Assembly: GCA_018820315.1 (NCBI GenBank)
Contig: JAHJOQ010000092.1
Location: 6,591 to 70,590 of the forward strand
DNA: 64,000 bases
Source of the DNA: Candidatus Zixiibacteriota bacterium
Lineage (GTDB): Bacteria; Zixibacteria; MSB-5A5; JAABVY01; JAHJOQ01
Direction of reading: 5' to 3'
Shown: piece by piece, positions 1-57,127 of the stretch
Layout of the letters: every line of letters starts with the position of its first letter
Numbering within the stretch: the stretch's first letter is position 1
Program-made: the position numbers and the translations under genes
The notes under the pieces: model-generated
Seen by the model: the letters and a program-made list of their open reading frames with translations, nothing else
What the model was told of the DNA's origin: nothing
Databases searched by the model: none

Positions 1-1857
1 GCCACTGGACTCCATGACTTGTCAATCATTGCTACCGATGAACTCGGTGCCTCTGCTGCATGCCATTTTGAAGTATTCGTGAATTCCACTGCTCCATATT
101 TCATCGGCTGCGGGGGCGACAGCTCAGCCGTAACGTCCGTGATAGGTGAGACCGTGCGCGGCTCACTACTGGCTTCGGACCCTGACAATTGTCCCGAGCC
201 TCTTTCTTATTCACTGATTTCGTTTGGAGGTCCCGGTCTGTTTGAGGTAGACTCGGCGACTGGAGAATGGTCCTGGCGCACACACTCTACCGATGATTTC
301 CTTGGTGATTTTGATGTAACGGTCGGTGTAACAGATGGCTTCAATTCGGAGACGTGCACGTTTACAATCACTGTGCTTCCGACTTTCGATATTTGGATCG
401 GCACAGACTTGATGCATCCTCAGGGGCAATACACCATAGTCCCGATCTATGTGTCAAATGAGTCCGACTACCTCGCTGGTTTTGATTTCCTCATTACATA
501 TGATGGCAAAATACTTAATTTCATAGATGCCGAAATTGGCGAAGGTTTGGGATCTGACGGATGCGGCTGGGAGTATTTCACGTACAGGTACGTAAGCCAA
601 TCTGAATGCGACGGCTGGTGTCCGGTTCATATGCTAAGATTCGTCGCTATGGCCGAAGCTGACTTGCAGCCTCCGTACCCTCTCTGCTACGGTGGCGATT
701 CGCTCGAACTTGTGAACATGAGATTTCTTGTCTCGGGCAGTGCCGACTTTCACTGCAAGTACACGCCCGTGAGCTTCTACTGGAACGACTGCGGTGACAA
801 TGGTGTGTCCAGTGTATCGGGTGATACGCTCTGGATCTCATCGAGTGTATACGTCTTTGACGCGACCGCCACGCCGACGTACATTGAAGTTACGGGAGCT
901 AAGGGCTATGGGGGACACAGCGGGATTCCAGACGTAGATTGCCTTGCGGGGAGTATCCATGGAGGTAGACCTGTGGAAGGCATAATCTACAGGGGTGGAG
1001 GTTTGAAAACGGAGTGCGTGGCTGATGTGGTCCTGTATGGCGATCTGAATCTCAATCGCGTTCCGAATGAGATCTCTGATCTTGTGCTGTATCTGAACTA
1101 CTTCATATTTGGCTTGCCGGTATTTGTCATCAACCCGGAAATTCAGATCGCAACTTCCGATGTTAATCAGGACGGTCGTGTCCTGACCTCCGGCGACGTT
1201 GTCTATATGGTCAGGATTATCGTGGGGGATATAACAGCACCATTGAAGCCGGATCAGGGTGGTGGAGAGATGTACATCGAGTGCCGTCCCCGCGATGAGA
1301 TTGTGGCTATCTGTGTGCGATCTGACGTCGATGTTGGTGCCTTGTTTCTGGAGTTCGATGTTGGCAGCAATGACGCGTCCCCTGTGCTGCTGGCGGACCA
1401 GATGGAAATGAAGTGGAATCTCGACAAGGGTAAACTCCGCGTTATGATCTACTCGATGTCGACTGCGCGGATTCCGGCCGGTGAAAGAGAATTGCTGCTG
1501 ATTGAAAGAGCCAAGACGCCGACAATCATGCAGGTTTCTGCCTCAGACTACTACGGCAATACAATTCAGACCGAGCTGGGCGCCTATGCCCGCGAGGAAA
1601 GCCTCAGGTTGATCGCAAATCGACCCAATCCGTTCAATCCCACTACAGAGATTTGCTTTTATACTCCCGCGTCGGCAGAGTGGTCGGTAGAGATATTCAA
1701 CATCATTGGACAGAAAGTCGACGAGCTTCGTGGCACTTGCGGAACTGGCCTGAATTTCGTATTATGGGATGCGGGCAGTCACCCATCGGGAGTCTATCTA
1801 TACAGGGTGGTGGTTGGAGAACAGTCAGCTAGTGGTAAGATGGTCCTAATGAAATGA
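1..1857 (+). CDS. 5-prime-partial secreted multidomain protein with two cohesin-like modules, an internal dockerin-like segment and a C-terminal Por/T9SS sorting domain
   Basis: The reading frame is open from nt 1 (the track uses an internal TTG at 19). Cohesin-like modules around aa 125-185 (YTIVPIYVSNESDYLAGFDFLITYDGKILNF) and aa 420-470 (GALFLEFDVGSNDASPVLLADQME...LRVMIYS). Dockerin-like segment LYGDLNLNRVPNEISDLVLYLNYFIFG...SDVNQDGRVLTSGDVVYMVRIIVG. The last ~80 aa (NPFNPTTEICFYTP...GVYLYRVVVGEQSASGKMVLMK) match the T9SS C-terminal-domain pattern. Confidence 0.55.
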   Translation, partial: ATGLHDLSIIATDELGASAACHFEVFVNSTAPYFIGCGGDSSAVTSVIGETVRGSLLASDPDNCPEPLSYSLISFGGPGLFEVDSATGEWSWRTHSTDDFLGDFDVTVGVTDGFNSETCTFTITVLPTFDIWIGTDLMHPQGQYTIVPIYVSNESDYLAGFDFLITYDGKILNFIDAEIGEGLGSDGCGWEYFTYRYVSQSECDGWCPVHMLRFVAMAEADLQPPYPLCYGGDSLELVNMRFLVSGSADFHCKYTPVSFYWNDCGDNGVSSVSGDTLWISSSVYVFDATATPTYIEVTGAKGYGGHSGIPDVDCLAGSIHGGRPVEGIIYRGGGLKTECVADVVLYGDLNLNRVPNEISDLVLYLNYFIFGLPVFVINPEIQIATSDVNQDGRVLTSGDVVYMVRIIVGDITAPLKPDQGGGEMYIECRPRDEIVAICVRSDVDVGALFLEFDVGSNDASPVLLADQMEMKWNLDKGKLRVMIYSMSTARIPAGERELLLIERAKTPTIMQVSASDYYGNTIQTELGAYAREESLRLIANRPNPFNPTTEICFYTPASAEWSVEIFNIIGQKVDELRGTCGTGLNFVLWDAGSHPSGVYLYRVVVGEQSASGKMVLMK

Positions 1858-2513
1858 GTACCTCAATTGCCTTCTTGCGATTCGAGAGGCCAGGGCTTCT
1901 GATCGCAGTCCCAGTTTTGATTTCACTACTTGCGGCGATGTCATTGATTCCGTGCGAGACAGCCTACGCCGAAGACCTCATCGTGCGCGCATCGGCCGAA
2001 TGCTGCAAACAGCACCCCAACTTCGAATCTGGCAGCAAAGCCGTCCTGATGGATGGTGAAAAGATTCTTGGCACCAGTCAGATTGAGAGTGAAGCACCGT
2101 TTAGGTTCAAAGATGTGGAGCCAGGGAAGTATGACTTATTAGTATTGGTTGTTGGATACTACCCCATCAAATTCTCGGGAGTTGAGATCGGAGAGGGTGG
2201 GGTTTACGATTTCGAGCTGATAGCTGATCTTAAACCGCTCACAGCAAACCTTCTGGAAGGGCAGATAGTCATTCGGTTCAAAAAGCAGTTGTCAGACGAC
2301 GAGATTCTAAAGCGTCTCGATAGCTGGAAACTTGGAGTTCAGCAGCTCTCTCGGATAGAGCCCGGCTCCAAACCACCGCAACACGTTATTGAAAGGATGT
2401 ATGGATACTCTGAGGTGAGAGCCTCATACGATCGGTCAAGGAAGCTGAGAGATATCATGTCCGATATCTTAAACGATCCCGCTGTGATCGAGTGCACACC
2501 GTTGTATTTCTGA
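1854..2513 (+). CDS. secreted hypothetical protein (signal peptide; carboxypeptidase-regulatory-like beta-sandwich segment)
   Basis: ATGA overlap with the upstream stop. N-terminal hydrophobic signal LLIAVPVLISLLAAMSLIPCETAYA. Segment KYDLLVLVVGYYPIKFSGVEIGEGGVYDFELIADLKP resembles the CarboxypepD_reg fold. Confidence 0.45.
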   Translation: MSTSIAFLRFERPGLLIAVPVLISLLAAMSLIPCETAYAEDLIVRASAECCKQHPNFESGSKAVLMDGEKILGTSQIESEAPFRFKDVEPGKYDLLVLVVGYYPIKFSGVEIGEGGVYDFELIADLKPLTANLLEGQIVIRFKKQLSDDEILKRLDSWKLGVQQLSRIEPGSKPPQHVIERMYGYSEVRASYDRSRKLRDIMSDILNDPAVIECTPLYF

Positions 2514-2600
2514 CACAGGATTTGGGCTAAGTACTGAACTTACGCGATCTGCCGCAGCCTTCACTCGTAGCGCGACAAAACATGACAAAGGGGTTTGGAG

Positions 2601-4172
2601 ATGTCTGATATCACGATTATTCGTGGGCGTGTTGTCACTGCATTCACTCTTGCTGTTGCATTGTGCGTTGCTCTTTGCATCACAGGTTACGCATCAGATA
2701 TGCCCGTCGGTATCACTATAAAGAAAGTGTCGACCTACCGCGCCGAACTGCTTTGGTTTTGCTCCAATATCAATGATTCTATTGCCGCACACGATGATGG
2801 GGGTTGGGAGGCGGCGGTCGCGGTCCGTCATGATGATCGGGACAATCGTGCCGCAGTCAAATTCTCGGATTTTTCGGTGCCGGTGTTTGTGACAGCGGGT
2901 TCAGCTTTCGTTCTGAACCTCGATCCTGATCCGTCCAATCCGGGTGACCCGTTGTCAACAATTGAGATATCGCTGCATCGGGATAATGCCGGTGTTCCGG
3001 GAGAGATGGTCTCCGGACCGGTGACAGTGGCGGCCTCGGGCGAATGGACAGGTGGCGGCGAGTGGGTCACTGCGAGTCTATCGTATTTGCACGACAACAG
3101 TGATCCTCTGTGGCTGCAGGTGAGATGGCCATCCTCTAATCCTTTCATGCCCAAACTTGGGGGAGATGGTGGAATGCCGACGTACAACTCTTATGTCGGA
3201 TACGCGACTGAAGGTGGGGATGTCTGGGTGCCGTACGGCGATTTCGAGATCATGTTGAGGCTGCATGTTCTCAACAACGGCAAGGACTCGCCGATTGCAC
3301 CAGATGAATCTGAAACAGACAGCTTCAGAGTATACTCTCGCGACAGGCTGCCTCTTTATCCGTGTGGGAGTCTCTTCGATACGTCAACTGCGGGATTTGT
3401 GCTGAACCAGCGTGTCATACCTTACAATATAGACAATTACTACTGTGTGACGGCCTGGCTGGATGGAGTGGAGAGCTCCCCCAGCGATATCGTACACATT
3501 GAGGGTTCGAGCGGGGCATCGGCGCCCGCAAGCATTACTCCTCGTCATATCGAGCTGGCAGTACCGCTCGGTTCCGACACGGTTGCATACATGGCAATCA
3601 AGAACAAGGGCTATGCGACACTGCAGTATCAGTACTCAGATGATCCTATGTTTGCGAAAGCTGCTGATGGCTTTCCGATGACAATTCTGAATGGCTCAGG
3701 ATTGATTTATCCGGGAAGGACAGATTCGATTGTATTCCTGATTGGTTCAGCGAACCTCGGCCTCGGTGACTATATGGAGGTCGGAAGCATCGGCTTCAGC
3801 GATTCACTCGAGGTTTATTCCCCGGAGGATGTGTCGGTCTACGTCGTTATCGATCAGCTCACTTCAGTCGATAATATCGATGAATTCGTCCCGCGATCAT
3901 GTTTCCTGCACCAAAATTCCCCTAACCCATTCAATGGCGAGACGGTGATTCTGTTGGAATCTCCGGCTCTTGTTACGGAGCCGCTGCTTCGGATAGTCGA
4001 TATCCTCGGAAGACGGGTCGCAGATATTGCACCCGCCCGGTCAATGTCTGGAGTCTCTTTGTTTGAGTGGGATGGATGTGATGGGAATGGCCACTTATGC
4101 CCCTCCGGTGTGTATTTCTATACCGTTTCAAATCTGAACACGACATGGCAGAAGATGCTCATGATCCGATAA
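2601..4172 (+). CDS. secreted protein with C-terminal Por/T9SS sorting domain
   Basis: ATG at 2601 preceded by AAAGGGG; the track start at 2595 is a TTG. Signal peptide VVTAFTLAVALCVALCITGYA. C-terminus NSPNPFNGETVILLESP...GVYFYTVSNLNTTWQKMLMIR matches the T9SS CTD pattern. Confidence 0.6.
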   Translation: MSDITIIRGRVVTAFTLAVALCVALCITGYASDMPVGITIKKVSTYRAELLWFCSNINDSIAAHDDGGWEAAVAVRHDDRDNRAAVKFSDFSVPVFVTAGSAFVLNLDPDPSNPGDPLSTIEISLHRDNAGVPGEMVSGPVTVAASGEWTGGGEWVTASLSYLHDNSDPLWLQVRWPSSNPFMPKLGGDGGMPTYNSYVGYATEGGDVWVPYGDFEIMLRLHVLNNGKDSPIAPDESETDSFRVYSRDRLPLYPCGSLFDTSTAGFVLNQRVIPYNIDNYYCVTAWLDGVESSPSDIVHIEGSSGASAPASITPRHIELAVPLGSDTVAYMAIKNKGYATLQYQYSDDPMFAKAADGFPMTILNGSGLIYPGRTDSIVFLIGSANLGLGDYMEVGSIGFSDSLEVYSPEDVSVYVVIDQLTSVDNIDEFVPRSCFLHQNSPNPFNGETVILLESPALVTEPLLRIVDILGRRVADIAPARSMSGVSLFEWDGCDGNGHLCPSGVYFYTVSNLNTTWQKMLMIR

Positions 4173-4273: not shown

Positions 4274-4600
4274 ATGATCGTATCCTCCATTAGAGTTCTG
4301 ACAAAAAGAGTCACTATGTGTCCATTCTTGAATGGGTGTGTGAAATACATTTTCATCGTACCGAATCAATTGCTTAGAGGGACACGACTCGGTCAGAACA
4401 AAAAACTGGAGACGCGAGAGATTATGTCAGAATCGGCTCACTGGGACTATAAACAAAGCGGTACATGATGTAACATATTAATGAGAAGGAGGAAGGGTTG
4501 GAACACAAAGAAAAGCATGCGCACGACACCTCTTAATGCGACGACATCACGCCAATTACCAACAGGTTAATGTTTGAGATTCCTTAGGGAGGATTATTCC

Positions 4601-7600
4601 ATGAGAAAGAAATTATGTCTGTTAGCGGCCTGTCTGCTTATCGTCGCACTCTTCTGGGTGATAGCGATGGCTGCAGGCCCGAATCAGACTGCCACCGTTG
4701 TTTCGGGCTCGCAAACGGTTCAGATGGGGGAGGATATAAGCCGTGCGGCATGTACGATGACCCACAGCAGTCTGACGATCGGAGCATATTTCGGTGGCTT
4801 TGCACCCGGTATGCTCAATGTCAGCTATTTCAATCCAGCTGACTTTTGTGCTGCACCATATCCGTTTGAGATCACTGCTTTTTCGTTCCCCCTGTATGAT
4901 CCGGGCGGATTCGTTTGGCCGGTTTCTCTTGACGTCGTTGTTTTTGATGCCCCCGATTCGTGCGCAGGGCCGGGAGTCGAGCTCTGTCGGTTCACGGTTG
5001 TCTGTGATCAGGCGACATTTCAGTTCCCGAATGTGGGTGTGGCAGCATTCCCGGCGCCGTGCTGTGTGAATGGGCCATTCTTCATTGGTATCGAGTACAC
5101 GAATGGCGCGGTGGGATCAATTCCTTCGATATGCTATGATGACACCTCTCCACCAGAGGTCTGCATCAACTGGTTCTTCTATTCCGATGGTGCTTGGTAC
5201 GAGTGGTACGATATCTGGACGCCGCCAACACCCGGGTATCCGATGTTCTGGGTTGACGGTGAAACTGAGTCAGCAAACTGCGACCAGGGGCCGTGCGACT
5301 GGAATCCCGGCGATGAATACAAGATGCACTTCCCGCAGCCTCCAGATGAAGCTGGATGGGATGTGAATGCCACGTTCCCAGCTGTCATGGCCGATGACTT
5401 CGAATGTATCGAATCCGGATACATAAAAGACATCCACTTCTGGGGATCGTGGAAATTCGGCGCTACCGGTATAATCGATTCATTTGGTCTGTCACTCCAT
5501 TCCAACATAACTGAGCAAGAAAACCCAGACGGCTACAGCATGCCGGGCGACCTGCTCTGGTCATATGTAGCCACACTGTGGACTGAAGAGCCCATAATGG
5601 GCCAGTACATGGAAGGCTGGCTCGATCCGGTGACCGGTGAAGTTCTGCCTGACAATCATCAGGAGTACTTCCAGTACAATATTTGTCTCGATGAACCATA
5701 CTGGTTCTGGCAGGATGCCGGTACGATCTACTGGCTGGACATCACAGCGTACCTGGCAGACGGTTCTGCGGAGACCTGGGGATGGAAGACGTCTCTCGAA
5801 CATTTCATGGATGATGCCGTTTATATGGGCGGGGGTACATGCACTGCTCCCGATAACGGCACAGGGACAGTTGATCTGCCTGCGGACTGTCCATATGTTG
5901 ATGTTGATAGTCCCTTGATGATCATGGATGGACTTCCACCGGGCACTTCGATCATCTGTGATCCAACACTCGATGAGTACTATAATAAGCAAGAATATCC
6001 GGGTGGATCTCTCGGTGGTGATATTCACGAATTCGACGCTATGCTGACCCTTGAAATGACTGGTACAGGCGACCTTGCTGGATTTGTGAGACATATTTCG
6101 ATGGATGTCCATGTCGAAATTCACACCGGCCCCCGAAATCCGGGTGATCCTGTTCAGGCATTCGCGGCTGAACTCTGGTCGCTCTCCGGTCAAATAGTGG
6201 GCGATCCGGATTTCGACTATCTGGCAATCCAGGCTGGGTCAGCCTACGGCCTTCCGAGTCCCGGCCAGTTTGAGATCACCGATATTGGAGGCGGGCTTTA
6301 CCATATCGACAGCTTCTTCGATATCACATATCAGATTGACTTTGATGGAGCTCCCGGCTCGGTTCTGGATGCCATGTCTGGTTCTACAGTGGGCACGAGT
6401 CGCTGGATACAGGGTGGTGGCTCTGGTTGGAATGAGCTGCGCGAGCCTGTGTTTGAACAGAATTGGCTCGGCAATGCCTTCTGGGGAGAAATGTACCCGA
6501 CCGGTGAATTCATCGGCGGAGGCGAAAACGCATTTGGTGAAGGCTGGTTCTATTATCCAATGTATGATTGGTGGAACATCTGGTTCTACGACCATCCATA
6601 CGATCCGACCCGCTATAAAGAGGTTCACTTTGATGTCGAGTTTATTGAGACAATGCCGGGCGGGTTTGTGGAGTTTGCCTTGAATTGGTCGACTGATCAG
6701 TGGTCAATTGACCAACCGATAGGAGATAGCGCTCCGCCTCTTCCGGGCGTTGACGAGGACCTCTACATCGGCAGAGCCATCCTTTATGCCGGTCCGATTC
6801 CTCCTGGACCTATGCCGCTTGATTTTGTGATACCGGAATACAATCCGGAGTGGGTCTCAGTCGATGTCAGAGGCATAGGTTTCATGATTCCTCAGGGTAT
6901 CATATCTCACAGCTGCTCTGGATACAGTCTAAGTGGCGAGTCGCTTGACCTTGCCTTTGTGATTACTGGCGGACCGGAAGAACCGGTACCATATGATACA
7001 GTCGTGTGCGAGCCTCAGGGTGATCCGAATCCAACACATCCGGACACATACTGGTATGATGTTACTCCGACCATCTTTGGACGTTGCGACTTCCACGTGA
7101 TGGTGTTTGACAGTGTGCTGAGTCACTACAGCAACTTTGTCGAGCCTGTCAATTGGACCCACCAGTTACACAAGGTTGGTAACGATTGGTGGATGTCGTT
7201 CTGCAATCCGGGATGTACCGACGCCATATTCGCTACATTCAGATTCTCGTTCGACAATCCGTATGCCAGTGTCTGGGGTCATTGGAGAACTACGGCAGAT
7301 CCGGCGGGTCTCTGCGATCCATATGTCGGCGTAGTCGATTCGTCTGAGAATCACACTGCCGATATGGATGGCTATGGCTATAGAGTGCATGTGCCGTACT
7401 TCGAAGCTCCCGACGTCGATACCTGTACGTATTACAAGGAGCCTTTCGAGGACTATGCACCGTTTGGCATGCCTGACTTTGATCAGAAGCAGGCTGGTTG
7501 GTTGAGCCCATTCACGGGAGGCTGGAGCTATTGTGGTCCTGCTGCAGTTGCAAACTGCTTCTGGTGGTTTGATTCGAAGTTCGAAACAATTCCGATGGTA

Positions 7601-8548
7601 CCGCCTGCAATCAGCGATCATTACCCGCTAGTTTCGGCGTACGGTCCGTGGGACGATCACGATCCGAATAATGTGATACCGTTCATAAGTGCCTTGGGAA
7701 CAGCGCTGAATACCGATATGATGCCGCTCGGAGGAACAAACATCCATATGATGGCTTCCGGCGTTATCGATTGGCTGACCGCGATGGGACTCATTGCTAA
7801 TTATACGGTAACGCTGATGCCGGGTGATAATCCGATGATGTTCGAGTACATCATGGAAGAGGTGCTCATAAGCCAGGATGTCATTCTGCTACTCGGGTTC
7901 TGGGAGGATCTCGGTGCTCAGTGTAGCCGCATCGGCGGACACTATGTGACAGTTGCCGGTGTCTGCCCCGACGACTTCGGATTGTGTATCTCTGATCCAT
8001 ATTTTGATATGCATGAGGGTGAGCCACCCGCAGGTGCCGCGCACCCGGCTGGTGTACACAATGATGCGCAGTTCATTTCCGGGCCGCACGGTACAATCTT
8101 CCACGACAAGTACCTTGTGGGACCGGTCATGTGGCCGTGTCAGCCACCGTTTACGACAGAAGTGTATGGCTATCCGAATAACCCGATAGACATAATCAAC
8201 TTCGAATGGCTGAACGATGGTGACATCCCATCCGCAGGGTATCAGGGCGGTCCGATATTCACGCTTATCGAATATGCTCTGGTGATATGCCCGGTTGACT
8301 GTGATGCGTTGATTGGCGAAGCCGACAACAGCGGCGCGATTGACATCGACGATGTTGTCTACCTGATCGCATACATCTTCTCAGGTGGACCCGCTCCTGC
8401 GCCGTACTCAGTCGCATCGGGAGATGCCGATTGCTCCTGCGCGGTCGACATCGATGATGTAGTTTATCTGATTGCATACATATTCTCGGGTGGTCCAGCA
8501 CCTTGTACATGCGAGGAATGGGTAGCCGCCTGCGGAGCACTGCATTAG
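4601..8548 (+). CDS. giant secreted protein (1315 aa) with two C-terminal dockerin repeats; N-terminal 1200 aa of unknown function
   Basis: GGGAGG Shine-Dalgarno 8 nt before ATG 4601; the track start at 4574 is further upstream. Signal peptide MRKKLCLLAACLLIVALFWVIAMAA. Composition extremely rich in W/Y/F/P/G/D/C. C-terminus carries two IDIDDVVYLIAYIFSGGPAP repeats with flanking Cys. Confidence 0.7.
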   Translation: MRKKLCLLAACLLIVALFWVIAMAAGPNQTATVVSGSQTVQMGEDISRAACTMTHSSLTIGAYFGGFAPGMLNVSYFNPADFCAAPYPFEITAFSFPLYDPGGFVWPVSLDVVVFDAPDSCAGPGVELCRFTVVCDQATFQFPNVGVAAFPAPCCVNGPFFIGIEYTNGAVGSIPSICYDDTSPPEVCINWFFYSDGAWYEWYDIWTPPTPGYPMFWVDGETESANCDQGPCDWNPGDEYKMHFPQPPDEAGWDVNATFPAVMADDFECIESGYIKDIHFWGSWKFGATGIIDSFGLSLHSNITEQENPDGYSMPGDLLWSYVATLWTEEPIMGQYMEGWLDPVTGEVLPDNHQEYFQYNICLDEPYWFWQDAGTIYWLDITAYLADGSAETWGWKTSLEHFMDDAVYMGGGTCTAPDNGTGTVDLPADCPYVDVDSPLMIMDGLPPGTSIICDPTLDEYYNKQEYPGGSLGGDIHEFDAMLTLEMTGTGDLAGFVRHISMDVHVEIHTGPRNPGDPVQAFAAELWSLSGQIVGDPDFDYLAIQAGSAYGLPSPGQFEITDIGGGLYHIDSFFDITYQIDFDGAPGSVLDAMSGSTVGTSRWIQGGGSGWNELREPVFEQNWLGNAFWGEMYPTGEFIGGGENAFGEGWFYYPMYDWWNIWFYDHPYDPTRYKEVHFDVEFIETMPGGFVEFALNWSTDQWSIDQPIGDSAPPLPGVDEDLYIGRAILYAGPIPPGPMPLDFVIPEYNPEWVSVDVRGIGFMIPQGIISHSCSGYSLSGESLDLAFVITGGPEEPVPYDTVVCEPQGDPNPTHPDTYWYDVTPTIFGRCDFHVMVFDSVLSHYSNFVEPVNWTHQLHKVGNDWWMSFCNPGCTDAIFATFRFSFDNPYASVWGHWRTTADPAGLCDPYVGVVDSSENHTADMDGYGYRVHVPYFEAPDVDTCTYYKEPFEDYAPFGMPDFDQKQAGWLSPFTGGWSYCGPAAVANCFWWFDSKFETIPMVPPAISDHYPLVSAYGPWDDHDPNNVIPFISALGTALNTDMMPLGGTNIHMMASGVIDWLTAMGLIANYTVTLMPGDNPMMFEYIMEEVLISQDVILLLGFWEDLGAQCSRIGGHYVTVAGVCPDDFGLCISDPYFDMHEGEPPAGAAHPAGVHNDAQFISGPHGTIFHDKYLVGPVMWPCQPPFTTEVYGYPNNPIDIINFEWLNDGDIPSAGYQGGPIFTLIEYALVICPVDCDALIGEADNSGAIDIDDVVYLIAYIFSGGPAPAPYSVASGDADCSCAVDIDDVVYLIAYIFSGGPAPCTCEEWVAACGALH

Positions 8549-24009: not shown

Positions 24010-25458
24010 TCAGACTGCATATATCATAAGATCAAGCTTGCCGAGTCCGGAGAACTTCTTCGGATCGCCAACTCCCCTAAATATCAAAGTAACCTTGTTC
24101 ACAGATGGCGACTGGAGCATATCCTGCGGCCGCAGCGCGACCTTCGCGCCGAAGGTGACAGCGTCAACCTTAACCGGATCTGTCTCGCCCAAGCCTCTGG
24201 CCTCATTGACTCCGAACCTGACCTGCATATTGGTCCATTCCGCTGTGCTGAACAAGTCTTTGGACATCAGAACGACTGTGTCCGAAACAGCCTGAGGATT
24301 CTCGATGTTTATCAGCAGGTAGCTGAGCTCTCCAACCTGTTCCAGATTGCACGACTGGAATGGGACCAGTCTGTATGTACGGTTGTTATATGTCAGGCTG
24401 TCTTCAGCGGAGGCCTCTCTTCCAAGTTCATCTTTCCTGATCTGAGCCAAGAAGCCAAGCACGCCCCGGAGATCGCTCAGGATTGAGTCGATCATGCCCA
24501 CCTGGTCCCTGATATTCTGGTGGTCGTACTCAGAAAGCAGAAATGAGTCTATCGCAGCCATGAACCTGCCTACGTCAGTGCTTCGCTCCTTCGTGAAGTG
24601 CTTCTCGTTCAGATAGTCCTTCAGGCCGGGCTGTAGATTTAAAAGAGTAGCGAGAACACGGAACAGACTCTTGAAATGAACCACCATGCTGAGCGGGTGC
24701 GATGCGTTCCTGCCAAGTACGAAGCTGTCGAGAGTAGAGGAAATGTGATATGCCATCAAGAAGACAGTATCCTTGAATGCTGCCTGAAGATCAGTCTTCT
24801 CGCCAGCGAGTAATCCCTCAGTCGTTATAGCTGCAAAGGCTCGAGACGACAGTGAGAGCAGACTCTCAAGCCTGTTGCGGAAGTCCGTTGCGGTCTTAAG
24901 CAAATTTTCGTCGGCATTGATCGTCACACAAGGCGGACAATATCCAACGGAGAAGTGTGCTTCTGATCCCGTAACCTTTAGTTCAGCAACCTGCACGAAC
25001 ATACTTTCGGGCATATTCGGCCTTTTCCCCAAATGAAGGCCATATCCTGCCGCCAAATAGGGCATCCTCGGGATCTCCTCCTCAGGATCAGGATCTCCAA
25101 CCTCTCGCTTCTCCGATGGCTTTACGCTGATGTAAACCGGCATTGGACCGTCCGTTAGATCAGTCTCCGCCTTCAAGCTCAGTTTCTCTGACTCGCTGAT
25201 GTCAATATAGCTGCCATTCGGAGTCAGTGCCTGACAGCGCGTAATGGTGACTCGCAGTTTGTCGCCACTGGCCATCATATCAATGCTCAGTGCAGGCTTG
25301 CCAGACAGTGACTTCCGTACCAAGCCGTAGCTGTCGGCAACATCGAGATTGTGCCAGCGTGCTAGATCTTCAAAGTAGCTTTCCTGGTCCTTGAGATGCT
25401 GCTGGGTTATCAGCATCCCATCCTTCCAGTTTACAGAATATAACTTCAAGTCACTCAT
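24010..25458 (-). CDS. tssK: type VI secretion system baseplate subunit TssK
   Basis: N-terminus KLYSVNWKDGMLITQQHLKDQE matches the TssK shoulder-domain signature (W.EGM.L.PQHF). 482 aa. Sits between tssG and the TssL-like gene. Confidence 0.62.
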   Translation of the reverse strand: MSDLKLYSVNWKDGMLITQQHLKDQESYFEDLARWHNLDVADSYGLVRKSLSGKPALSIDMMASGDKLRVTITRCQALTPNGSYIDISESEKLSLKAETDLTDGPMPVYISVKPSEKREVGDPDPEEEIPRMPYLAAGYGLHLGKRPNMPESMFVQVAELKVTGSEAHFSVGYCPPCVTINADENLLKTATDFRNRLESLLSLSSRAFAAITTEGLLAGEKTDLQAAFKDTVFLMAYHISSTLDSFVLGRNASHPLSMVVHFKSLFRVLATLLNLQPGLKDYLNEKHFTKERSTDVGRFMAAIDSFLLSEYDHQNIRDQVGMIDSILSDLRGVLGFLAQIRKDELGREASAEDSLTYNNRTYRLVPFQSCNLEQVGELSYLLINIENPQAVSDTVVLMSKDLFSTAEWTNMQVRFGVNEARGLGETDPVKVDAVTFGAKVALRPQDMLQSPSVNKVTLIFRGVGDPKKFSGLGKLDLMIYAV

Positions 25459-25528: not shown

Positions 25529-26437
25529 CTATACATAACTGGAATAGCCGAGATAACCACAATCTGCTTTTCTCCCGATCTGCATACGTTTTTGCTCGCC
25601 CATAACTTTTATTTGGCTGACAAGATTGCTTGGCATGCACAGGTCGAGCGCTCTTTCCACTTTTTCTCTTATACGCCCACCCGGCACAAACTCGCCGATG
25701 TCTTCAGTCTTCACATCTCTGATGATGACGTCATAGGCAGAATCGCACTCTGAAAATGACCGTCCCACGAGCGAGTTCACCGCGAGTCTGCTCTCTGCCG
25801 ACCCAAGACTGAAACAAATCCCTCTCGCTATTTCAAATGTTGATGACACGTTCTCGATGATTTGACACTCATATCCGGCCAGATGCGTGAGAACCTTCTC
25901 GACCAACTCAGCATTGCCTGCCCAATGATGGTACATGGGGAGAAGAGTGAACCAAAACATAAGCTCCGAAAATGAACCTGAATGTCGATCGGAATCAAAG
26001 TCGAATAACTTGAGAAAGCGGTGAAGATGCTCCTCTTCGACAAAACTAAGGCTGAATGTGAGAGCATCTCTCTTCGCAATGGACGTGTATCTTATCACCG
26101 AAGCATCAAAAGGTGCCATCAGTTTCCGGGATTGCATATCCCAATCGTCGGTGCGGGCAGTGGAGCCACTGAGTCCGTAAAAGAACTGATACGGCATATA
26201 ATCAACTGCACTATTGTAGCCTATCATCAGGACAATTTTGGAGCCAGGCCCGACTGGAGTTCCCGCCGAAGGATTCTGTTCAATAACTTCGCCCTTGTAG
26301 TTTTCGTACTCGCCGACAGCAAGTATATCTACACTGCGGATATCAATGCAGGTCTTGCCGAGAATGTTGAGAGCAGTGGCGAAGTGAAGCGGGTGCCGTC
26401 TACTGCAGAGCTCAGGCATTATCATTTCATCGGTCAT
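25529..26437 (-). CDS. tssG: T6SS baseplate subunit TssG-like (gp7/gp53-like), assigned mainly by size and position
   Basis: 302 aa. 4-nt overlap with the upstream tssF-like gene. Canonical tssE-F-G order. Confidence 0.4.
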   Translation of the reverse strand: MTDEMIMPELCSRRHPLHFATALNILGKTCIDIRSVDILAVGEYENYKGEVIEQNPSAGTPVGPGSKIVLMIGYNSAVDYMPYQFFYGLSGSTARTDDWDMQSRKLMAPFDASVIRYTSIAKRDALTFSLSFVEEEHLHRFLKLFDFDSDRHSGSFSELMFWFTLLPMYHHWAGNAELVEKVLTHLAGYECQIIENVSSTFEIARGICFSLGSAESRLAVNSLVGRSFSECDSAYDVIIRDVKTEDIGEFVPGGRIREKVERALDLCMPSNLVSQIKVMGEQKRMQIGRKADCGYLGYSSYV

Positions 26438-28512: not shown

Positions 28513-30231
28513 TCAGTTCAGTTTTATTGGATTGCCCTTAACATTCACCATTGCACCTTCTGCGTCGAAGGTCCCGGATGCCTTGCTCTCGAAATTAGCC
28601 GAAGCCTGAAGCTTCATATTGGCGCTGGATTTCATTTCGAGATCGGTTCCTGCCTCGACAGTGACCTTCTCGTCAGTTTTCAGCTTTATATTCTTGCCCT
28701 CGATCGAAATGTCACCATCTATGCTCTTAATTGTTATACTCGGTCCATCCATGGTTAGAATTATCTGATTGGCGCCATCAGGCGACGTTATTTCTATAGA
28801 CTCCTTGCCCGATTCATCATTGAATATAATCTCGTTTCCTGACTTTGTCGTGAACAGCTTGATTAGATTCTCTTCACTATTCGCTTTCGAATGTGGAGCG
28901 CCCTCGGAATTGTAAACCGAGCCGACCACCACTGGCCTCGATGGATCGCCGAATTCGAAGCCGACAAGGACTTCGTCATTGAGTTCCGGTATCCAGAAGG
29001 ATCCCCGATCTGAGCCAGCGTGCATTGTGGCATAACGCACCCAAGGTGTTTCATCGGAACCGCTCCAGGGAAACTTCACCTTTATTCGACCGAGCATATC
29101 CGGGTCATGGTTGTTGACAACGATTGCTGGCTGTAATTGAGTAATTTGGGGAGCCTTTCGGGACATGCCGGGAAAAGCCAGATCAAGAGGAGTGCATATG
29201 AATGTATTATGGTACTTCCCACTTTCATCAAAAATATGCTTTACGCCCTTGACCCAATAAGGTCGGTTAATCAGATCAGCCATCTCTCTGACAGTGATGG
29301 TATGACCGACCGCAACAGTCGGCATGATCGACTGTCCCTGGCAATTAATCATCCTGCCCATAGCGCTGGAACGAGCCGTCGTGAGAACCTGATCCAGCGA
29401 TCTTGAATCCGAAACCACAGGGGATTCTACAAAGCTGGGACTATCATATACTTGTGCCGAGGCAGTGGGGGAGAGGTCGGAGAGATCGGAGAGAGCGGCG
29501 GTCCTTGAGATAGATGAGGAATCATTGGAATAGCTTCTCGTCTGCTCATAGTTGTATACGGTCGACTTGAATTCCATTTGCTGAGTGCCGACGCCAAGCG
29601 CGAAGGCTCCAAGCGTCTGCCTCCATATCAGATCTTCATTCTCACGGCTGGAGGCTTCGATCAGTTTGAACTCTCCGCCATCATAATGAGCGAACTTGCC
29701 ATCTACACAGGCAAGCCTTTGGATGAAATCCCAGTCTGTTTCGCGGTATTGTACAACGAAGTTCAGGGTCCTGGCTGATGATTCCATATTTCCAACCGTT
29801 ATGGGATAGCCTCTGACCAATGCACCGATTATATCGCTTGCTGAGATTTCGTGATACAGTGCATTGCGCTTGCAGTCTTCCATCGCAATCGTCGGGCTGT
29901 GCGCCGTCACAATCACTCTGTTTAGCCCATCTATGCTGTTGTCAAGGCTGACTTCGGTGACAACTCCAATAAATTCGAGTTCCTTGGAGGCGTCGACCGT
30001 GCCACCAGTCGGAGATATTGTTACTGCGATGGATTGACCGAGGAAGTTTGTATATGTGCTCGGATCGTCAAAGTCAGCGGTGGCAGCCGTACGAGCGACT
30101 CTCTTGATTGTTACTTTTAGTACGTGATGGTCATTAATGGATTGGTTTAATTCAACCCCGGATATGAGATGGCGAATTTCGTTACCGGCGATTCTGATTT
30201 GGCAGTCAGCTGGGGTTTCGAGTACAGGCAT
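28513..30231 (-). CDS. vgrG: T6SS spike protein VgrG (TssI; gp27/gp5-like)
   Basis: Conserved gp5 OB-fold block HAGSDRGSFWIPELNDEVLVGFEFGDPSRPVVVGSVYN. 572 aa. C-terminal beta-helix-like repeats (SITIKSIDGDISIEGKNIKL...). Confidence 0.8.
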   Translation of the reverse strand: MPVLETPADCQIRIAGNEIRHLISGVELNQSINDHHVLKVTIKRVARTAATADFDDPSTYTNFLGQSIAVTISPTGGTVDASKELEFIGVVTEVSLDNSIDGLNRVIVTAHSPTIAMEDCKRNALYHEISASDIIGALVRGYPITVGNMESSARTLNFVVQYRETDWDFIQRLACVDGKFAHYDGGEFKLIEASSRENEDLIWRQTLGAFALGVGTQQMEFKSTVYNYEQTRSYSNDSSSISRTAALSDLSDLSPTASAQVYDSPSFVESPVVSDSRSLDQVLTTARSSAMGRMINCQGQSIMPTVAVGHTITVREMADLINRPYWVKGVKHIFDESGKYHNTFICTPLDLAFPGMSRKAPQITQLQPAIVVNNHDPDMLGRIKVKFPWSGSDETPWVRYATMHAGSDRGSFWIPELNDEVLVGFEFGDPSRPVVVGSVYNSEGAPHSKANSEENLIKLFTTKSGNEIIFNDESGKESIEITSPDGANQIILTMDGPSITIKSIDGDISIEGKNIKLKTDEKVTVEAGTDLEMKSSANMKLQASANFESKASGTFDAEGAMVNVKGNPIKLN

Positions 30232-30817: not shown

Positions 30818-32245
30818 TTACTTATCCTTTACGCTCGTCTGGTCATCCTGATTCCAGGCAGTGAACTCGATATTGAATGTCCTCGCTGGATATTTCGGAT
30901 TGAGCGCGACCTTAATATCGATCTCCTGACGCTTGCGCATCTCTTCATCAGCAAATATCTCGACGCGATAATCCTGAAGAATATTGTCACCGCCGCTAAT
31001 CGCTTTCATAAATTTGTCGATGTCGCGACGCATAGTGTCGACAAATTTCTGATCGATCACGGAGAACGTCTGTTTGTTCAGGTAATTGCGCAGAGTCTTA
31101 TACACATAATCGTATGTGCGACGAATGGAGTAGACGTTGAACGTCTCCTTGCTGAACAGTGTCGCGGCACCCATAGAAACTGCCGTGCCTTCAAAGCTGA
31201 CCATCGGGTTGACGCCTTTTTCATTTATCTTGCTGGCATCCGGCTGATTCGCCTTGAACCTCAGATACTTCGCATCGGCAATCTTCCCATGCTTGAAACC
31301 TGCCATCGGCTGCTGCATGCCGACTGTTGTGTCACCCTGGTACATCTTGCCGGCGACTGACGCTGACGGTGGTATCCACATGTCCTCGTCTTCGTACTGG
31401 TTCTGCTCGCGAGCCAGAAGGTAGTTCGCGAACACCGATACATACTGCTTGTAGTTGTCGATTCCGGGAAGGTTGGCGTAGTTTGGATCGTCGAGCATGT
31501 CCATGACTTCCTCGACACTCTCCAGATTGGGGAGGTCAGTCATGATGTGCAGCTTGTTCGGGAGACCGAGCTGTCGCGCGACGGTGTCAATGTTTTCGAC
31601 ACTGCCGAGATAACCGGGGATCACGGCCATCGAGAAGCAGTCTTTGATACTCCACTCGCGATAGAGATCGGCGACAGCTTTCGACAATTCCTCGAATTTC
31701 TCCTTGTCATCGGGATCGACCAGTTCCTCTCCGCTGACATTGGCGAAGTAGGCATTGACCTTCTCGTCCGGTTCCTGCTGGGCATTTGCGAAGAACTTGT
31801 CAATAGCGCGATAGGTCGTCTCAAGTTCGCGTGACTCCCTGTGCACTTTCTTCATATTCTTTTCGAGATTCGCCTCGAGCTTGGTAGACTGCTCATTAAG
31901 GCTCTTGCGGATGGTCTCGATATTTTCTTCCTTCGCGAAATTGTCTATCCAGATTCGCAGGCGCTCGGCGAGAAGTTTCCGTTGAGTTTCGAAGTCCTTC
32001 TTGGTCAGGAATTCTTTGCGCTGAAAGTCCTTCTTCGGATCGAGCCATTCTACGCCCCGAACGAGATCGCCATCAGTGGTCTTGAATGACGGAAGCAGTC
32101 CTGCCAGCTTCTTGAAATCACCGAATGTATCCCCCAGTATCGCCGCAAATTCCTCATCCGATACTTTCTCGACTTCGAGTGCTGGCTTTGCCGCGGCCGC
32201 CTCAGCAGCCTCTGCCTGTGGTTCCAATTTCTCTTCTTCACCCAT
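30818..32245 (-). CDS. tssC: T6SS contractile sheath large subunit TssC (VipB-like)
   Basis: 475 aa, acidic N-terminus. Immediately downstream of the tssB-like gene and upstream of hcp. Confidence 0.58.
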   Translation of the reverse strand: MGEEEKLEPQAEAAEAAAAKPALEVEKVSDEEFAAILGDTFGDFKKLAGLLPSFKTTDGDLVRGVEWLDPKKDFQRKEFLTKKDFETQRKLLAERLRIWIDNFAKEENIETIRKSLNEQSTKLEANLEKNMKKVHRESRELETTYRAIDKFFANAQQEPDEKVNAYFANVSGEELVDPDDKEKFEELSKAVADLYREWSIKDCFSMAVIPGYLGSVENIDTVARQLGLPNKLHIMTDLPNLESVEEVMDMLDDPNYANLPGIDNYKQYVSVFANYLLAREQNQYEDEDMWIPPSASVAGKMYQGDTTVGMQQPMAGFKHGKIADAKYLRFKANQPDASKINEKGVNPMVSFEGTAVSMGAATLFSKETFNVYSIRRTYDYVYKTLRNYLNKQTFSVIDQKFVDTMRRDIDKFMKAISGGDNILQDYRVEIFADEEMRKRQEIDIKVALNPKYPARTFNIEFTAWNQDDQTSVKDK

Positions 32246-32733: not shown

Positions 32734-33831
32734 TTATTTACTTCTCTCAGTGGTGAACGTGTAGTTGTCGTCCTTTACTCCTATGTTAACACGATCTCCA
32801 GCTTTTATCTTACCGGTTATTATATCAACTGACAGTCTGTTGACGATATCTCGCTCAATGATTCTCTGGATCGGTCTTGCTCCGAGCTCGAATGTGTAAC
32901 CATCCTTCGCCAGTTTCGACTTCGCTTCCTTGCTGAGAGTGGCCTCGATATTCTGGTCAGATAGCATACCGCAGAGATTGTTGAATTCAAGACCCGCTAT
33001 CACTTCTACCTGCTCCGGCGTGAATGTGTGATAGATAATGATGTCATTGAGACGGTTCAGGAACTCCGGTCTGAATTTGCTGAAAAGGAAAGTGCGAACT
33101 TCATCCATATCGACATCGCGACCCTCTCTATCAGCATCCAGAATCTTGTCTGCGGCATAGTTCGACGTTAGTACGACGATCGTGTTGGAAAAGTCGACGG
33201 TTCGATTCTGTCCATCTGTCAGCCTGCCATCATCAAGAAGCTGCAACAGAACGTTAAAGACATCGGGGTGAGCTTTCTCGGTCTCATCAAAAAGCACGAT
33301 AGAGAACGGTTTCCGTCGCACCGCTTCCGTCAGAACACCTCCAGCCTCATATCCGACATATCCGGGCGGAGCGCCTATCAGCTTGGCGACAGAGTGCGAC
33401 TCCATAAATTCCGACATGTCGAGTCTAACCATTGCGTTCTTGTCGTCGAAGAGAAACTCCGCAAGCAGCTTTGGCAGATATGTCTTGCCGGTGCCGGTAG
33501 GTCCGAGAAACAAGAACGACCCGACTGGTCTGTTTGCAAGCTTCAGTCCAGCCCTTGCCTTGCGAATCGCATTGGCTATAGCTTCAATCGCCTTCTCCTG
33601 CCCGACGATTTTCCTGGACAGGAATGATTCCATATTGATCAGACGGTCTTTTTCTGCTGTCAACATCTTGGAGACAGGTATGCCGGTTCGGCGGGCGACG
33701 ACAGAAGCAACATCAGCGTCCTCAATTGTGCGCTCTATGGATTCAGCCACTTTCTTCAATGGCGCGAACTTCCTCACCTTCTCGTCGAAATCCTTCTTCA
33801 GGAGTTCAATGTTTGTGACATCTATAGGCAT
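32734..33831 (-). CDS. clpV: ClpV/ClpB-type AAA+ ATPase, C-terminal half (M-domain remainder + NBD2 + C-terminal small domain)
   Basis: VGQEKAIEAIANAIRKARAGL sensor block. Walker A GPTGTGKT. Walker B VLFDETEKAH. Sensor-2 region LDDGRLTDGQNRTVDFSNTIVVLTSN. Start ATG shares one A with the stop of the upstream half (TAATG). Confidence 0.8.
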   Translation of the reverse strand: MPIDVTNIELLKKDFDEKVRKFAPLKKVAESIERTIEDADVASVVARRTGIPVSKMLTAEKDRLINMESFLSRKIVGQEKAIEAIANAIRKARAGLKLANRPVGSFLFLGPTGTGKTYLPKLLAEFLFDDKNAMVRLDMSEFMESHSVAKLIGAPPGYVGYEAGGVLTEAVRRKPFSIVLFDETEKAHPDVFNVLLQLLDDGRLTDGQNRTVDFSNTIVVLTSNYAADKILDADREGRDVDMDEVRTFLFSKFRPEFLNRLNDIIIYHTFTPEQVEVIAGLEFNNLCGMLSDQNIEATLSKEAKSKLAKDGYTFELGARPIQRIIERDIVNRLSVDIITGKIKAGDRVNIGVKDDNYTFTTERSK

Positions 33832-44916: not shown

Positions 44917-45029
44917 GGTTCCCCGGAGTTGTCTCTCGTTCAATCAACGGCAGAAAAGTTAAGAATGTTTGCGGCAGGAGTCAACAAATAGTTGTCAGGG
45001 GTGTTTCACCATTTGTGCTCAGATTCGAC

Positions 45030-45339: not shown

Positions 45340-45409
45340 ATCGCAAGTGGGATAATATACTCGACTAAAGTAGATCGCAATAATCCTGTATATGAGAGGA
45401 GCTTCAAAT

Positions 45410-47530: not shown

Positions 47531-47607
47531 TCTCCCTGCCCTGCGAAGGCCTGCAAATGTGACTATTGATCGGGCGGCTCATTTCAATGAGACCGGAGGA
47601 ATACAAC

Positions 47608-57126: not shown

Positions 57127-57127
57127 T

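Follow-up and report, generated by a model that had tools for sequence, protein, structure and literature searches.

Modules of the gene at the window start

We analyzed a 64,000-nucleotide stretch of DNA (here, the window) from a "Candidatus Zixiibacteriota" bacterium (GenBank assembly GCA_018820315.1, contig JAHJOQ010000092.1, positions 6,591 to 70,590 of the forward strand). The window opens with a gene encoding a scaffold-like protein of 618 amino acids (aa), which runs in frame 1 of the plus strand from nucleotide 1, where its 5' end is open, to a stop codon at positions 1855 to 1857. The remaining frames and the reverse strand at this gene hold only short open reading frames (ORFs); those beneath it on the reverse strand measure 60 to 72 aa from a start codon, and one stop-to-stop stretch there has 234 codons. 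The 618-aa ORF is a C-terminal fragment. By comparison with its closest database relative, the full-length, 713-aa protein P0001 (88% identity), about 95 N-terminal residues lie outside the window, and in P0001 this stretch contains a signal-like hydrophobic segment and part of the first immunoglobulin (Ig)-like domain. From the N to the C terminus, the protein is composed of an Ig/cadherin-like domain, a cohesin (Coh1), a dockerin (Doc13), a small cohesin-like module (module 2, or Coh2), and a type IX secretion system (T9SS) sorting domain of type A. No catalytic domain was found in it by Pfam and NCBIfam scans. A first-pass annotation, made from the sequence alone, had proposed two cohesin-like modules, a dockerin-like Ca-loop segment between them, and a Por/T9SS C-terminal domain, and all of the motifs that it named are present in the ORF.

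All structures used in this study are AlphaFold2 (AF2) predictions, which were compared with solved structures via Foldseek. The model of the 618-aa fragment, based on 99 aligned homologues, has a predicted local distance difference test (pLDDT) score of 89.3 and a predicted template modeling (pTM) score of 0.60. Foldseek comparison of the whole model returned mostly generic multi-Ig chains, with cohesins among the matches, and is uninformative when taken alone. The first 127 residues (nucleotides 1 to 381, plus strand) comprise the end of one Ig/cadherin-like beta domain and one complete domain. Pfam Big_9 matches aa 44 to 124 (E = 1.5e-3), the family profile matches protocadherin and cadherin-23 structures in the PDB in the N-terminal region (E = 2.5e-10), and aa 3 to 126 are all-beta in the AF2 model.

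Coh1 (nucleotides 382 to 1020, plus strand, aa 128 to 340) carries the motif AGFDFLITYD at aa 159 to 168 and was identified by homology to Pfam-positive relatives and by its predicted fold. In the relatives P0026, P0118, and P0115, which align full-length to the window protein at E values of 1e-69 or below, the homologous module exceeds the gathering score (24.1) of Pfam Cohesin PF00963, with 33.0, 25.9, and 25.1 bits, respectively. Because the relatives' homologous module passes Pfam, Coh1 is placed in the Cohesin family by transitive homology. When a profile of Coh1 and the dockerin was compared with the PDB, 17 of the 18 matches at E ≤ 1 were cohesins or dockerins, and 13 distinct solved cohesins were recovered. 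The whole model matches 2vn6_A, a cohesin from C. cellulolyticum, over 214 columns with a template modeling (TM) score of 0.72 (TMt, normalized to the cohesin). This match must represent Coh1, because module 2 alone gives a TM score of 0.46 over 140 columns with the same structure and aa 128 to 340 amount to 213 residues. Coh1 is thus larger than an ordinary cohesin (140 to 150 aa): it consists of the cohesin jelly roll and about 70 residues of insertions, which are conserved, rich in Cys, and marked by the nearly invariant motifs WEYFTYR, C-P-x-G-x-x-R (CPxGxLR), and DCGDN. The assignment of Coh1 as a cohesin is supported by homology as well as by the modeled fold.

Module 2 (nucleotides 1261 to 1581, plus strand, aa ~421 to 527), with the motif LFLEFDVGSND at aa 448 to 458, was recognized by its predicted fold only. 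Modeled alone, it forms a compact nine-strand beta sandwich (pLDDT, 93.2; pTM, 0.85). The flattened, nine-stranded barrel of jelly-roll topology that is expected of a cohesin is present in the predicted structures of both Coh1 and module 2. Cohesins make up most of the top 50 Foldseek matches of module 2 in the PDB; the top cohesins reach an E value of 1e-5, with query-normalized TM scores (TMq) of 0.56 to 0.68. The best match is A. fulgidus 2xdh (E = 1.1e-5; TMq, 0.68), and further matches include 2jh2 (C. perfringens), 6kgc, 4dh2, CaCohA2, OlpC, and many type II cohesins. No Pfam Cohesin match was obtained for module 2. Its interpretation as a sequence-level cohesin or as a duplicate of Coh1 was dropped, and the fold alone supports its cohesin likeness. 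The residue ranges 120 to 200 and 410 to 480, which had been singled out for structure prediction by the first-pass annotation, do lie in these two modules and cover only the N-terminal part of each.

The internal dockerin (nucleotides 1027 to 1236, plus strand, aa 343 to 412) was recognized by PDB matches, conserved Ca ligands, and predicted helices. As canonical we regard dockerins with a duplicated F-hand, in which a helix comes after each of two 12-residue Ca loops (D/N at positions 1, 3, 5, 9, and 12). In the window protein, the loop motifs D348-L-N-L-N...D360 and D387-V-N-Q-D-G...D399 both have the acidic end residue at position 13 rather than 12, with a one-residue insertion relative to the type I dockerin 3UL4_B, and this atypical class is here called Doc13. 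Nevertheless, 3UL4_B is the best PDB match of the whole protein (phmmer E = 0.0012, aa 343 to 412) and of the Doc13 segment profile (E = 5.7e-4), for which four of the five PDB matches are dockerin regions, including that of 4fl4_A (E = 0.017) and that of CelD. The AF2 model places helices at aa 358 to 370 (after loop 1), 379 to 385 (linker), and 397 to 408 (after loop 2), and residues D348, D360, N389, D391, G392, and D399 are invariant in the 99 homologues.

The T9SS type A C-terminal sorting domain (CTD) occupies, with the stop codon, nucleotides 1606 to 1857 of the plus strand (aa 536 to 618). TIGR04183 matches aa 542 to 615 of 618 with 30.9 bits (cutoff, 23), and Pfam Por_Secre_tail PF18962, which scores 21 bits in the window protein (gathering score, 27), passes in most homologues. 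The motif NRPNPFNPTT and a beta-rich tail lie within aa 540 to 618, aa 548 to 616 form a beta sandwich in the AF2 model, and the family profile matches the solved T9SS CTDs 8glk_D and 8glj_D. Elsewhere in the window, three genes at positions 55474 to 58717 (plus strand) encode a GldA/GldF/GldG-like ABC transporter (E = 2e-99, 1e-58, and 1e-79, under the equivalog cutoffs). In Bacteroidota, GldA/GldF/GldG is a system associated with gliding and T9SS.

Family architectures and gene neighborhoods

A word-indexed search found 152 relatives of the window protein, and those with names are listed as "T9SS type A sorting domain-containing protein" from "Candidatus Zixiibacteriota." When the Coh1-Doc13 profile was run against 1.84 billion cluster representatives (defined at 50% identity), 1,925 proteins were recovered at E ≤ 1e-3 and 1,030 at E ≤ 1e-30. 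The family is found mainly in Zixibacteria; its genome matches comprise Zixibacteria, one Calditrichaeota metagenome-assembled genome (MAG), and MAGs labeled Ignavibacteria. The Pfam scans of relatives covered selected members of the 99-sequence alignment.

Purpose-built hidden Markov models (HMMs) were used to map the architectures of the 150 best-scoring representatives, a ranking that over-represents multimodule and multicassette proteins. The window architecture, Coh1-Doc13-Coh2-CTD, is present in 94 of the 150, and 49 contain two to five Coh1 modules, with 38 Coh1-Coh1 junctions that lack an intervening dockerin. A CTD stands at the end of 119 proteins and a canonical dockerin at the end of 21; both occur together in only one protein, in which the dockerin is internal. 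Thus, P0121 (2,189 aa) has five Coh1 modules and a CTD, whereas P0132 has four Coh1 modules, Doc13-Coh2, and a canonical dockerin, and P0123 has three Coh1-Doc13 units, Ig domains, and a canonical dockerin. The choice between a CTD and a dockerin as the ending therefore follows the logic of anchoring versus primary/adaptor scaffoldins in cellulosomes. In the same set, Coh1 is followed by Doc13 at 181 junctions and Doc13 by Coh2 at 163, with linkers of a few residues. Doc13 and Coh2 form an almost obligatory pair, which most likely acts as a rigid connector or as another interaction pair, internal to the family.

Some members depart from the common size or organization. Two giant ORFs (L006, 2096 to 11449, and L009, 4325 to 11455, with 3,118 and 2,377 codons stop to stop) carry one Coh1-Doc13-Coh2-CTD cassette at the extreme C terminus, and database representatives of the family reach 3,189 aa. 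In the Zixibacteria MAG OY760907.1 (L012, 8012 to 12627), four consecutive ORFs in different frames each encode Doc13-Coh2 or Coh1-Doc13-Coh2 and represent tandem paralogues or else a single multicassette gene frameshifted in a long-read assembly. Members of about 860 aa (P0008 and P0079) possess an extra N-terminal beta domain (~150 aa) that is not present in the window clade, and its hhalign comparison with Coh1 was not significant. A paralogue at positions 4486 to 6879 of L007 scores 27.2 bits with Pfam Cohesin at its N terminus (aa 31 to 135), and many family members may have a third cohesin.

The C terminus of four other window proteins consists of a Cys-flanked DIDDVVYLIAYIFSGGPAP segment in duplicate, the loops of which have the canonical 12 residues (consensus of the repeat, DIDDVVYLIxYIFxGGPAP), in agreement with the four dockerin-bearing proteins that the first-pass annotation had counted. 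All four are encoded on the plus strand, and all have an N-terminal signal-like sequence and no T9SS tail. The first is a 1,324-aa DUF7901 protein with a signal peptide (4574 to 8548; Pfam DUF7901, 1.5e-42), the double dockerin of which lies at aa ~1242 to 1311 (nucleotides ~8297 to 8506); encoded three genes downstream of the scaffold-like gene, it lies closest among the candidate partners of the cohesins. The second is a streptopain-like C10 peptidase with an I69-type propeptide and TSP3 repeats (45392 to 47530; Peptidase_C10, 5.5e-47; TSP_3; double dockerin at ~47318 to 47518), the third a C39-like peptidase with TSP3 repeats (47566 to 49245; Peptidase_C39_2, 5.5e-8; Dockerin_1, E = 0.009; double dockerin at ~49039 to 49233), and the fourth an FG-GAP/PQQ-type beta-propeller protein (50357 to 53032; FG-GAP_3 and PQQ_2; double dockerin at ~52820 to 53020). 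Only one of the four C-terminal dockerins reaches 16.6 bits with Dockerin_1 (E = 0.009; gathering score, 22.9). An HMM made from these four recovers C-terminal domains homologous to them in related loci, and those pass Dockerin_1 with 26 to 48 bits. The Doc13 HMM does not match the four C-terminal dockerins even at E ≤ 10; the assumption of a single dockerin class for the whole window was therefore dropped, and two classes coexist, Doc13 and the canonical C-terminal dockerins. Both peptidases contain TSP3 Ca-binding repeats and show a partial NCBIfam match to MtsC (E = 2e-32 and 2e-29, far under the cutoff), a myxobacterial MYXO-CTERM protein of cell-cell cohesion. Directly after the three clustered dockerin-tailed genes, positions 53692 to 55158 encode a secreted 488-aa protein with CBM96 and SdrD_B matches and no dockerin or T9SS tail.

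To place these genes in a wider context, we collected neighborhoods of family genes. A first scan of genome contigs was swamped by the T9SS-tail pattern NxPNPFNPxT and yielded about seven true family loci; hence, an alignment of Coh1 and Doc13 only was used as query on metagenomes. This gave 80 further family loci, which were dereplicated to 63 clusters at 70% identity. Genes were called by a simple longest-ORF heuristic, C-terminal canonical dockerins were marked by an iterated HMM, and their occurrence was tabulated by gene distance. In the 63 dereplicated loci, dockerin-tailed genes account for 9 of the 32 genes at position -1, 13 of 79 at ±1, 8 of 106 at ±2 to 3, and 5 of 198 at least four genes away (Fisher P = 8e-6 for -1 versus ≥4 and 9e-5 for ±1 versus ≥4). 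Because this distance gradient is measured within the same loci, it controls for a generally high dockerin density. The mere presence of a dockerin gene within 10 kb was rejected as evidence, since the window alone has about one dockerin gene per 16 kb.

The -1 neighbors belong to a conserved family of about 370 aa, each member of which has a signal peptide, a Coh1-homologous domain (hhalign probability, 83%; E = 8.6e-6), and a canonical dockerin; because of this combination, they resemble adaptors (here, Coh-Doc adaptors). Their pairwise identity is only 25 to 47%, indicating that the adjacency is old. Other dockerin-tailed neighbors include an S8 subtilase, a GSDH-type propeller, an SBBP propeller, a TSP3-repeat protein, and a protein composed of Ig, Cohesin (50 bits), and dockerin domains. 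No glycoside hydrolases were found among the neighbors examined. In a 4.4-Mb Zixibacteria MAG, a 33%-identical homologue of the window protein has Dockerin_1 proteins on both flanks (one Ig/filamin-like and one LVIVD propeller). The related loci contain 248 CTD-positive genes, which implies that a working T9SS exists in these lineages. A second recurrent type of neighbor, a protein of about 790 to 900 aa with an internal dockerin (canonical HMM) and a T9SS CTD, follows the family gene at a distance of two or three genes downstream (L007, 6882 to 9485; L126, 13402 to 16077; L141, 14389 to 17085; L088, 6229 to 8595; and others).

Two loci, L001 and L002, share the gene order of the window: DUF362, the family gene, a ~200-aa protein, a ~520-aa T9SS protein, the DUF7901-dockerin protein, and yebC-ruvCAB. 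A DUF7901-dockerin gene likewise stands at +3 in L002 and in L154, a more distant locus. In the window, the gene directly downstream (1854 to 2513, plus strand) encodes a 219-aa protein with a signal/anchor segment and no recognizable domain (weak CarboxypepD_reg match only). In the sequence ATGA (1854 to 1857), its ATG and the stop of the scaffold-like gene overlap, and the two genes are therefore probably cotranslated in one operon. It is followed by the gene of a secreted protein of 525 aa, which has a T9SS type A sorting domain of its own (2595 to 4172, plus strand; TIGR04183, 26.7 bits versus a cutoff of 23). Both genes are kept directly downstream in L001 and L002. Because this synteny is limited to close relatives, it was not used as functional evidence.

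Proposed function and alternative readings

The domain identities, the size and architectures of the family, and the neighborhood enrichment established here suggest that the gene encodes an anchoring-type member of a cohesin-dockerin assembly system in a Zixibacteria-like Gram-negative bacterium of the Fibrobacterota-Chlorobiota-Bacteroidota (FCB) group, a reading to which we assign a probability of roughly 0.55. Its composition is of the scaffoldin type: it is noncatalytic, it contains two cohesin-like modules, and four dockerin-tailed proteins are encoded within the same 64 kb. From these data we infer surface anchoring, secretion, cohesin-dockerin pairing, the existence of a complex, and the export of the dockerin proteins by some route. 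The scaffold protein would be exported by Sec (a signal peptide is visible in the full-length homologue), and its type A CTD would be recognized by the T9SS, so that the protein crosses the outer membrane and is kept on the surface. There, one or both cohesins may bind canonical duplicated C-terminal dockerins in a Ca-dependent manner. Coh1 is the likelier receptor, given its additional occurrence in free tandem repeats. Candidate partners in this genome are the DUF7901 protein, the C10 and C39-like peptidases, and the FG-GAP propeller; in relatives, they also include the small Coh-Doc adaptors and the multicohesin members in which a dockerin takes the place of the terminal CTD. The result would be a cell-bound multiprotein complex for proteolysis or adhesion and not for the degradation of plant cell walls. 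That the family cohesins may bind dockerins is suggested indirectly by genomic association, namely, the positional enrichment and the CTD-or-dockerin endings.

The first-pass annotation had gone further in proposing a cellulosome-like assembly displayed through T9SS that scaffolds proteases and propellers rather than glycoside hydrolases. It had named the lack of any cohesin HMM hit, combined with unrelated predicted folds, as what would speak against this idea; a Pfam Cohesin match was found in relatives, and cohesin folds were predicted for both modules. The display of an assembly gained comparative support from the protein endings, the presence of two to five cohesins in relatives, and the enrichment among neighbors, and C10, C39-like, and FG-GAP proteins carry dockerins, in keeping with the proposed type of cargo. 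The domain architecture described in the first-pass annotation held in all of the tests that were run, whereas its functional proposal was supported only in part, for reasons that also weigh against our own reading.

These reasons are of three kinds. (i) The window protein is an anchoring-type member with a single Coh1-Doc13-Coh2 cassette and not a multicohesin scaffoldin, and parts of it escape standard models. Its Coh1 scores 14.8 bits with Pfam Cohesin (E = 0.034, aa 141 to 181), below the gathering score. Pfam Dockerin_1 (PF00404) gives no match at E ≤ 1 in this protein, probably because both Doc13 loops are one residue longer than canonical ones; the internal dockerin of the relative P0030 reaches 14.6 bits, also below the gathering score of 22.9. 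The Pfam scans proposed in the first-pass annotation were hence positive for Cohesin in relatives, whereas in the window protein Cohesin and Por_Secre_tail stayed below threshold and Dockerin_1 was absent. Module 2 is cohesin-like by predicted fold only: its sequence shows no relation to any cohesin or to Coh1 (PDB profile E ≥ 0.48; hhalign probability, 0.2%), and jelly rolls of carbohydrate-binding module (CBM) families CBM2 and CBM3 form a lower-ranking minority of its Foldseek matches. (ii) No T9SS core genes (SprA/PorV/PorU/GldKLMN) were identified within the 64-kb window, the rest of the genome not having been searched, and covalent surface attachment after CTD cleavage is an assumption by analogy with Porphyromonas. 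The passage of the dockerin-tailed proteins through the outer membrane is a real gap, as they have signal peptides but no T9SS CTD. (iii) Three of the four dockerin proteins of the window are encoded more than 43 kb from the scaffold-like gene, so their copresence in the window is by itself no evidence. Zixibacteria-type contigs appear to be rich in dockerins (four in the 64-kb window), which makes proximity weak evidence and leaves the positional gradient alone as informative. In the clade of the window, moreover, the upstream gene is DUF362 and not a Coh-Doc adaptor.

A further point against our reading concerns Doc13. It is tethered to Coh1 by about two residues and nearly always co-occurs with it, which is also compatible with a cassette of purely structural role. 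Because it is of a different class from the C-terminal dockerins and always accompanies cohesins, Doc13 may be structural or may serve as a partner in cis. Taken to its end, this view makes Coh1-Doc13-Coh2 the rigid stalk or "foot" of a T9SS-secreted adhesin, in which Doc13 is bound in cis, the variable Ig/cadherin N terminus is the working part, and no recruitment takes place. The modules nearly always follow one another directly, joined by very short linkers (181 Coh1-Doc13 and 163 Doc13-Coh2 junctions), and in the loci searched, the Doc13 class was seen only inside such cassettes. The cassette sits beside the CTD at the end of proteins of 2,400 to 3,100 aa with long, variable N termini, the N-terminal domains match cadherins, and the pTM score of 0.60 for a five-domain chain suggests partly rigid packing. 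We regard this explanation as unlikely, although it deserves to be kept in mind. It accounts neither for the members with a dockerin in place of the CTD and the tandem free Coh1 modules nor for the positional enrichment and deep conservation of dockerin-tailed neighbors, and even if Doc13 were bound in cis, the second cohesin would still be free.

The presence of a cohesin and a dockerin in one polypeptide and the high conservation of Doc13 surface residues also raise the idea of a self-polymerized lattice, in which Doc13 binds Coh1 or Coh2 of another member in trans to build an S-layer-like or fibrillar coat, the canonical dockerins being part of an unrelated system. Several paralogues often have adjacent genes (L007, L012, L126, and L141), and the top Foldseek match of the whole model is a chain of an S-layer protein, albeit a generic match of the multi-Ig type. 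Such a lattice is improbable: the two-residue linker between Coh1 and Doc13 and the pairing of Doc13 with Coh2 favor packing in cis, and the enrichment of canonical-dockerin genes beside family genes, together with the dockerin-ended members, argues for one system comprising both dockerin classes.

The export gap noted above would be closed if the cohesins captured folded, CTD-less dockerin-tagged proteins in the periplasm and the CTD of the carrier took the whole complex through the T9SS translocon. T9SS substrates are believed to reach their folded state in the periplasm, ahead of transport, and the dockerin-tailed proteins have Sec signal peptides and no T9SS CTD, are yet expected to act outside the cell, and are encoded beside CTD-bearing cohesin proteins. 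However, we know of no precedent for hitchhiking on T9SS, the data do not separate binding before export from binding after it, and other routes, e.g., the type II secretion system, remain; we therefore give this scenario little credence. If true, the dockerin would double as export ticket and surface tether, T9SS would have its first hitchhiking mechanism, and it would become clear how a diderm bacterium can run a cohesin-dockerin system at all.

The last alternative, that the beta jelly rolls bind polysaccharide in a T9SS-displayed glycan-binding protein, can draw on the matches of module 2 to CBM2 (6qfs and 1exg) and CBM3b (4c8x and 2ylk) at E values of about 1e-4 to 1e-2 and on the CBM96-containing protein elsewhere in the window, but it is barely credible, given that cohesins outrank CBMs in the top 50 matches of module 2, Coh1 is tied to Pfam Cohesin by sequence, the window protein and the scanned relatives match no CBM family HMM, and glycoside hydrolases are lacking among the neighbors examined. 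None of the structural, lattice, and carbohydrate-binding explanations accounts for both the family architectures and the neighborhood result.

To our knowledge, experimental evidence of cohesin-dockerin assemblies comes almost entirely from Gram-positive cellulolytic Clostridia. As a proposed anchoring-type member of such a system, the window protein resembles clostridial anchoring scaffoldins (SdbA, OlpB, and OlpC of C. thermocellum and ScaB and ScaC of A. cellulolyticus), which are noncatalytic surface proteins whose cohesins hold dockerin-bearing partners, as its own cohesins may do. As in clostridial cellulosomes, the family splits into cell-anchored members and dockerin-ended multicohesin members, and its best sequence matches in the PDB are the OlpC cohesin and its dockerin (3UL4). 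The differences are as follows: in a diderm, a T9SS type A CTD is the presumed anchor rather than the surface-layer homology (SLH) repeats or sortase of a monoderm; the candidate cargo consists of peptidases, beta-propellers, and DUF7901 rather than carbohydrate-active enzymes; Coh1 has about 70 aa of conserved, Cys-rich insertions; and the linkers comprise 2 to 20 residues instead of long Pro/Thr stretches. Cohesins and dockerins outside plant cell wall degradation are also known from the NagJ/NagH/NanJ toxin complexes of C. perfringens and from the A. fulgidus cohesin AF2375 (2XDH), and the noncellulosomal cohesins 2xdh, 2jh2, 2w1n, and 2vo8 are the best fold matches of module 2 and are also matched by the Coh1 profile. 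In contrast to the family described here, those systems form pairwise enzyme-enzyme links or consist of single orphan modules, with neither a T9SS anchor nor a repeated cassette. The tight association of Doc13 with Coh2 (163 junctions) recalls the X-module-dockerin (XDoc) dyads of types II and III, in which a dockerin is rigidly paired with a constant beta-sandwich neighbor; however, the beta module here is C-terminal to the dockerin, i.e., in reversed order, and has a cohesin-like fold, whereas the X-module is Ig-like. The C-terminal domain of about 80 aa, with its matches to TIGR04183 and to solved CTDs, is like that of Bacteroidota T9SS type A cargo, such as the gingipains of P. gingivalis and the secreted enzymes of F. 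johnsoniae. Those proteins belong to another phylum, the CTD of P. gingivalis cargo is cleaved and the protein is linked to lipopolysaccharide, and many Flavobacterium cargoes are released.

The closest published idea concerns "Candidatus Stygibacter" (Cloacimonadota), for which a scaffoldin-like protein with a CTD for T9SS-type attachment was proposed in silico from MAGs (PMC8542988). That scaffoldin is a single 3,755-aa protein with tandem cohesins, CBM2/CBM3 modules, and GH18/GH57 partners, and the dockerin-tailed partners include S8 and C25 peptidases (PMC8542988). The two cases are alike in that both come from Gram-negative FCB-group bacteria, were found in silico, combine cohesins with a CTD, and involve dockerin-tailed peptidases. 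However, the family described here has a fixed Coh1-Doc13-Coh2 cassette, 13-residue dockerin loops, Cys-rich insertions in Coh1, and an adjacent Coh-Doc adaptor gene; no CBMs or glycoside hydrolases were found among the proteins examined, and it comprises more than 1,000 clusters at 50% identity. Thus, a T9SS-anchored scaffoldin has already been proposed for Cloacimonadota, and what is new is the Coh-Doc-Coh cassette with an atypical dockerin and a large undescribed family. In the library of papers that was searched, none links Zixibacteria with dockerins.

The same modular logic of anchored members, dockerin-ended multicohesin members, and Coh-Doc adaptors extends over those clusters, which belong mostly to uncultured Zixibacteria and neighboring FCB phyla sampled by metagenomics. 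If the interactions are real, they would form a "proteolysome"-like surface machine that may matter for environmental protein degradation by uncultured phyla, would offer protein engineers new orthogonal cohesin-dockerin pairs, and would pose the concrete question of how CTD-less dockerin proteins cross the outer membrane. The functional claims can be tested with recombinant modules, and cultivation is not needed.

Other features of the window

A type VI secretion-like cluster lies on the minus strand at positions 18941 to 44943. It encodes TssK/VasE (24010 to 25458; weak match), TssG (25529 to 26437), a VgrG-like protein (28513 to 30231), the TssC/VipB sheath (30818 to 32245; E = 2.5e-69), and a PAAR protein (43741 to 44943), as well as a pentapeptide-repeat protein, a 1,060-aa protein with LysM, BACON, and metallophosphatase domains, and a PG_binding_1 protein. 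The ClpV-like AAA+ ATPase of this cluster (32734 to 35288, minus strand) is divided between an upstream ORF with Clp_N, AAA, and AAA_lid_9 and a downstream ORF with AAA_2 and ClpB_D2-small, which adjoin and have one base (33831) in common. This is either a genuine gene split or a frameshift or assembly error. Finally, a 518-aa ORF at positions 60496 to 62052 (minus strand) contains fused Memo-like and AMMECR1 domains (E = 1e-70 and 3e-54, respectively).

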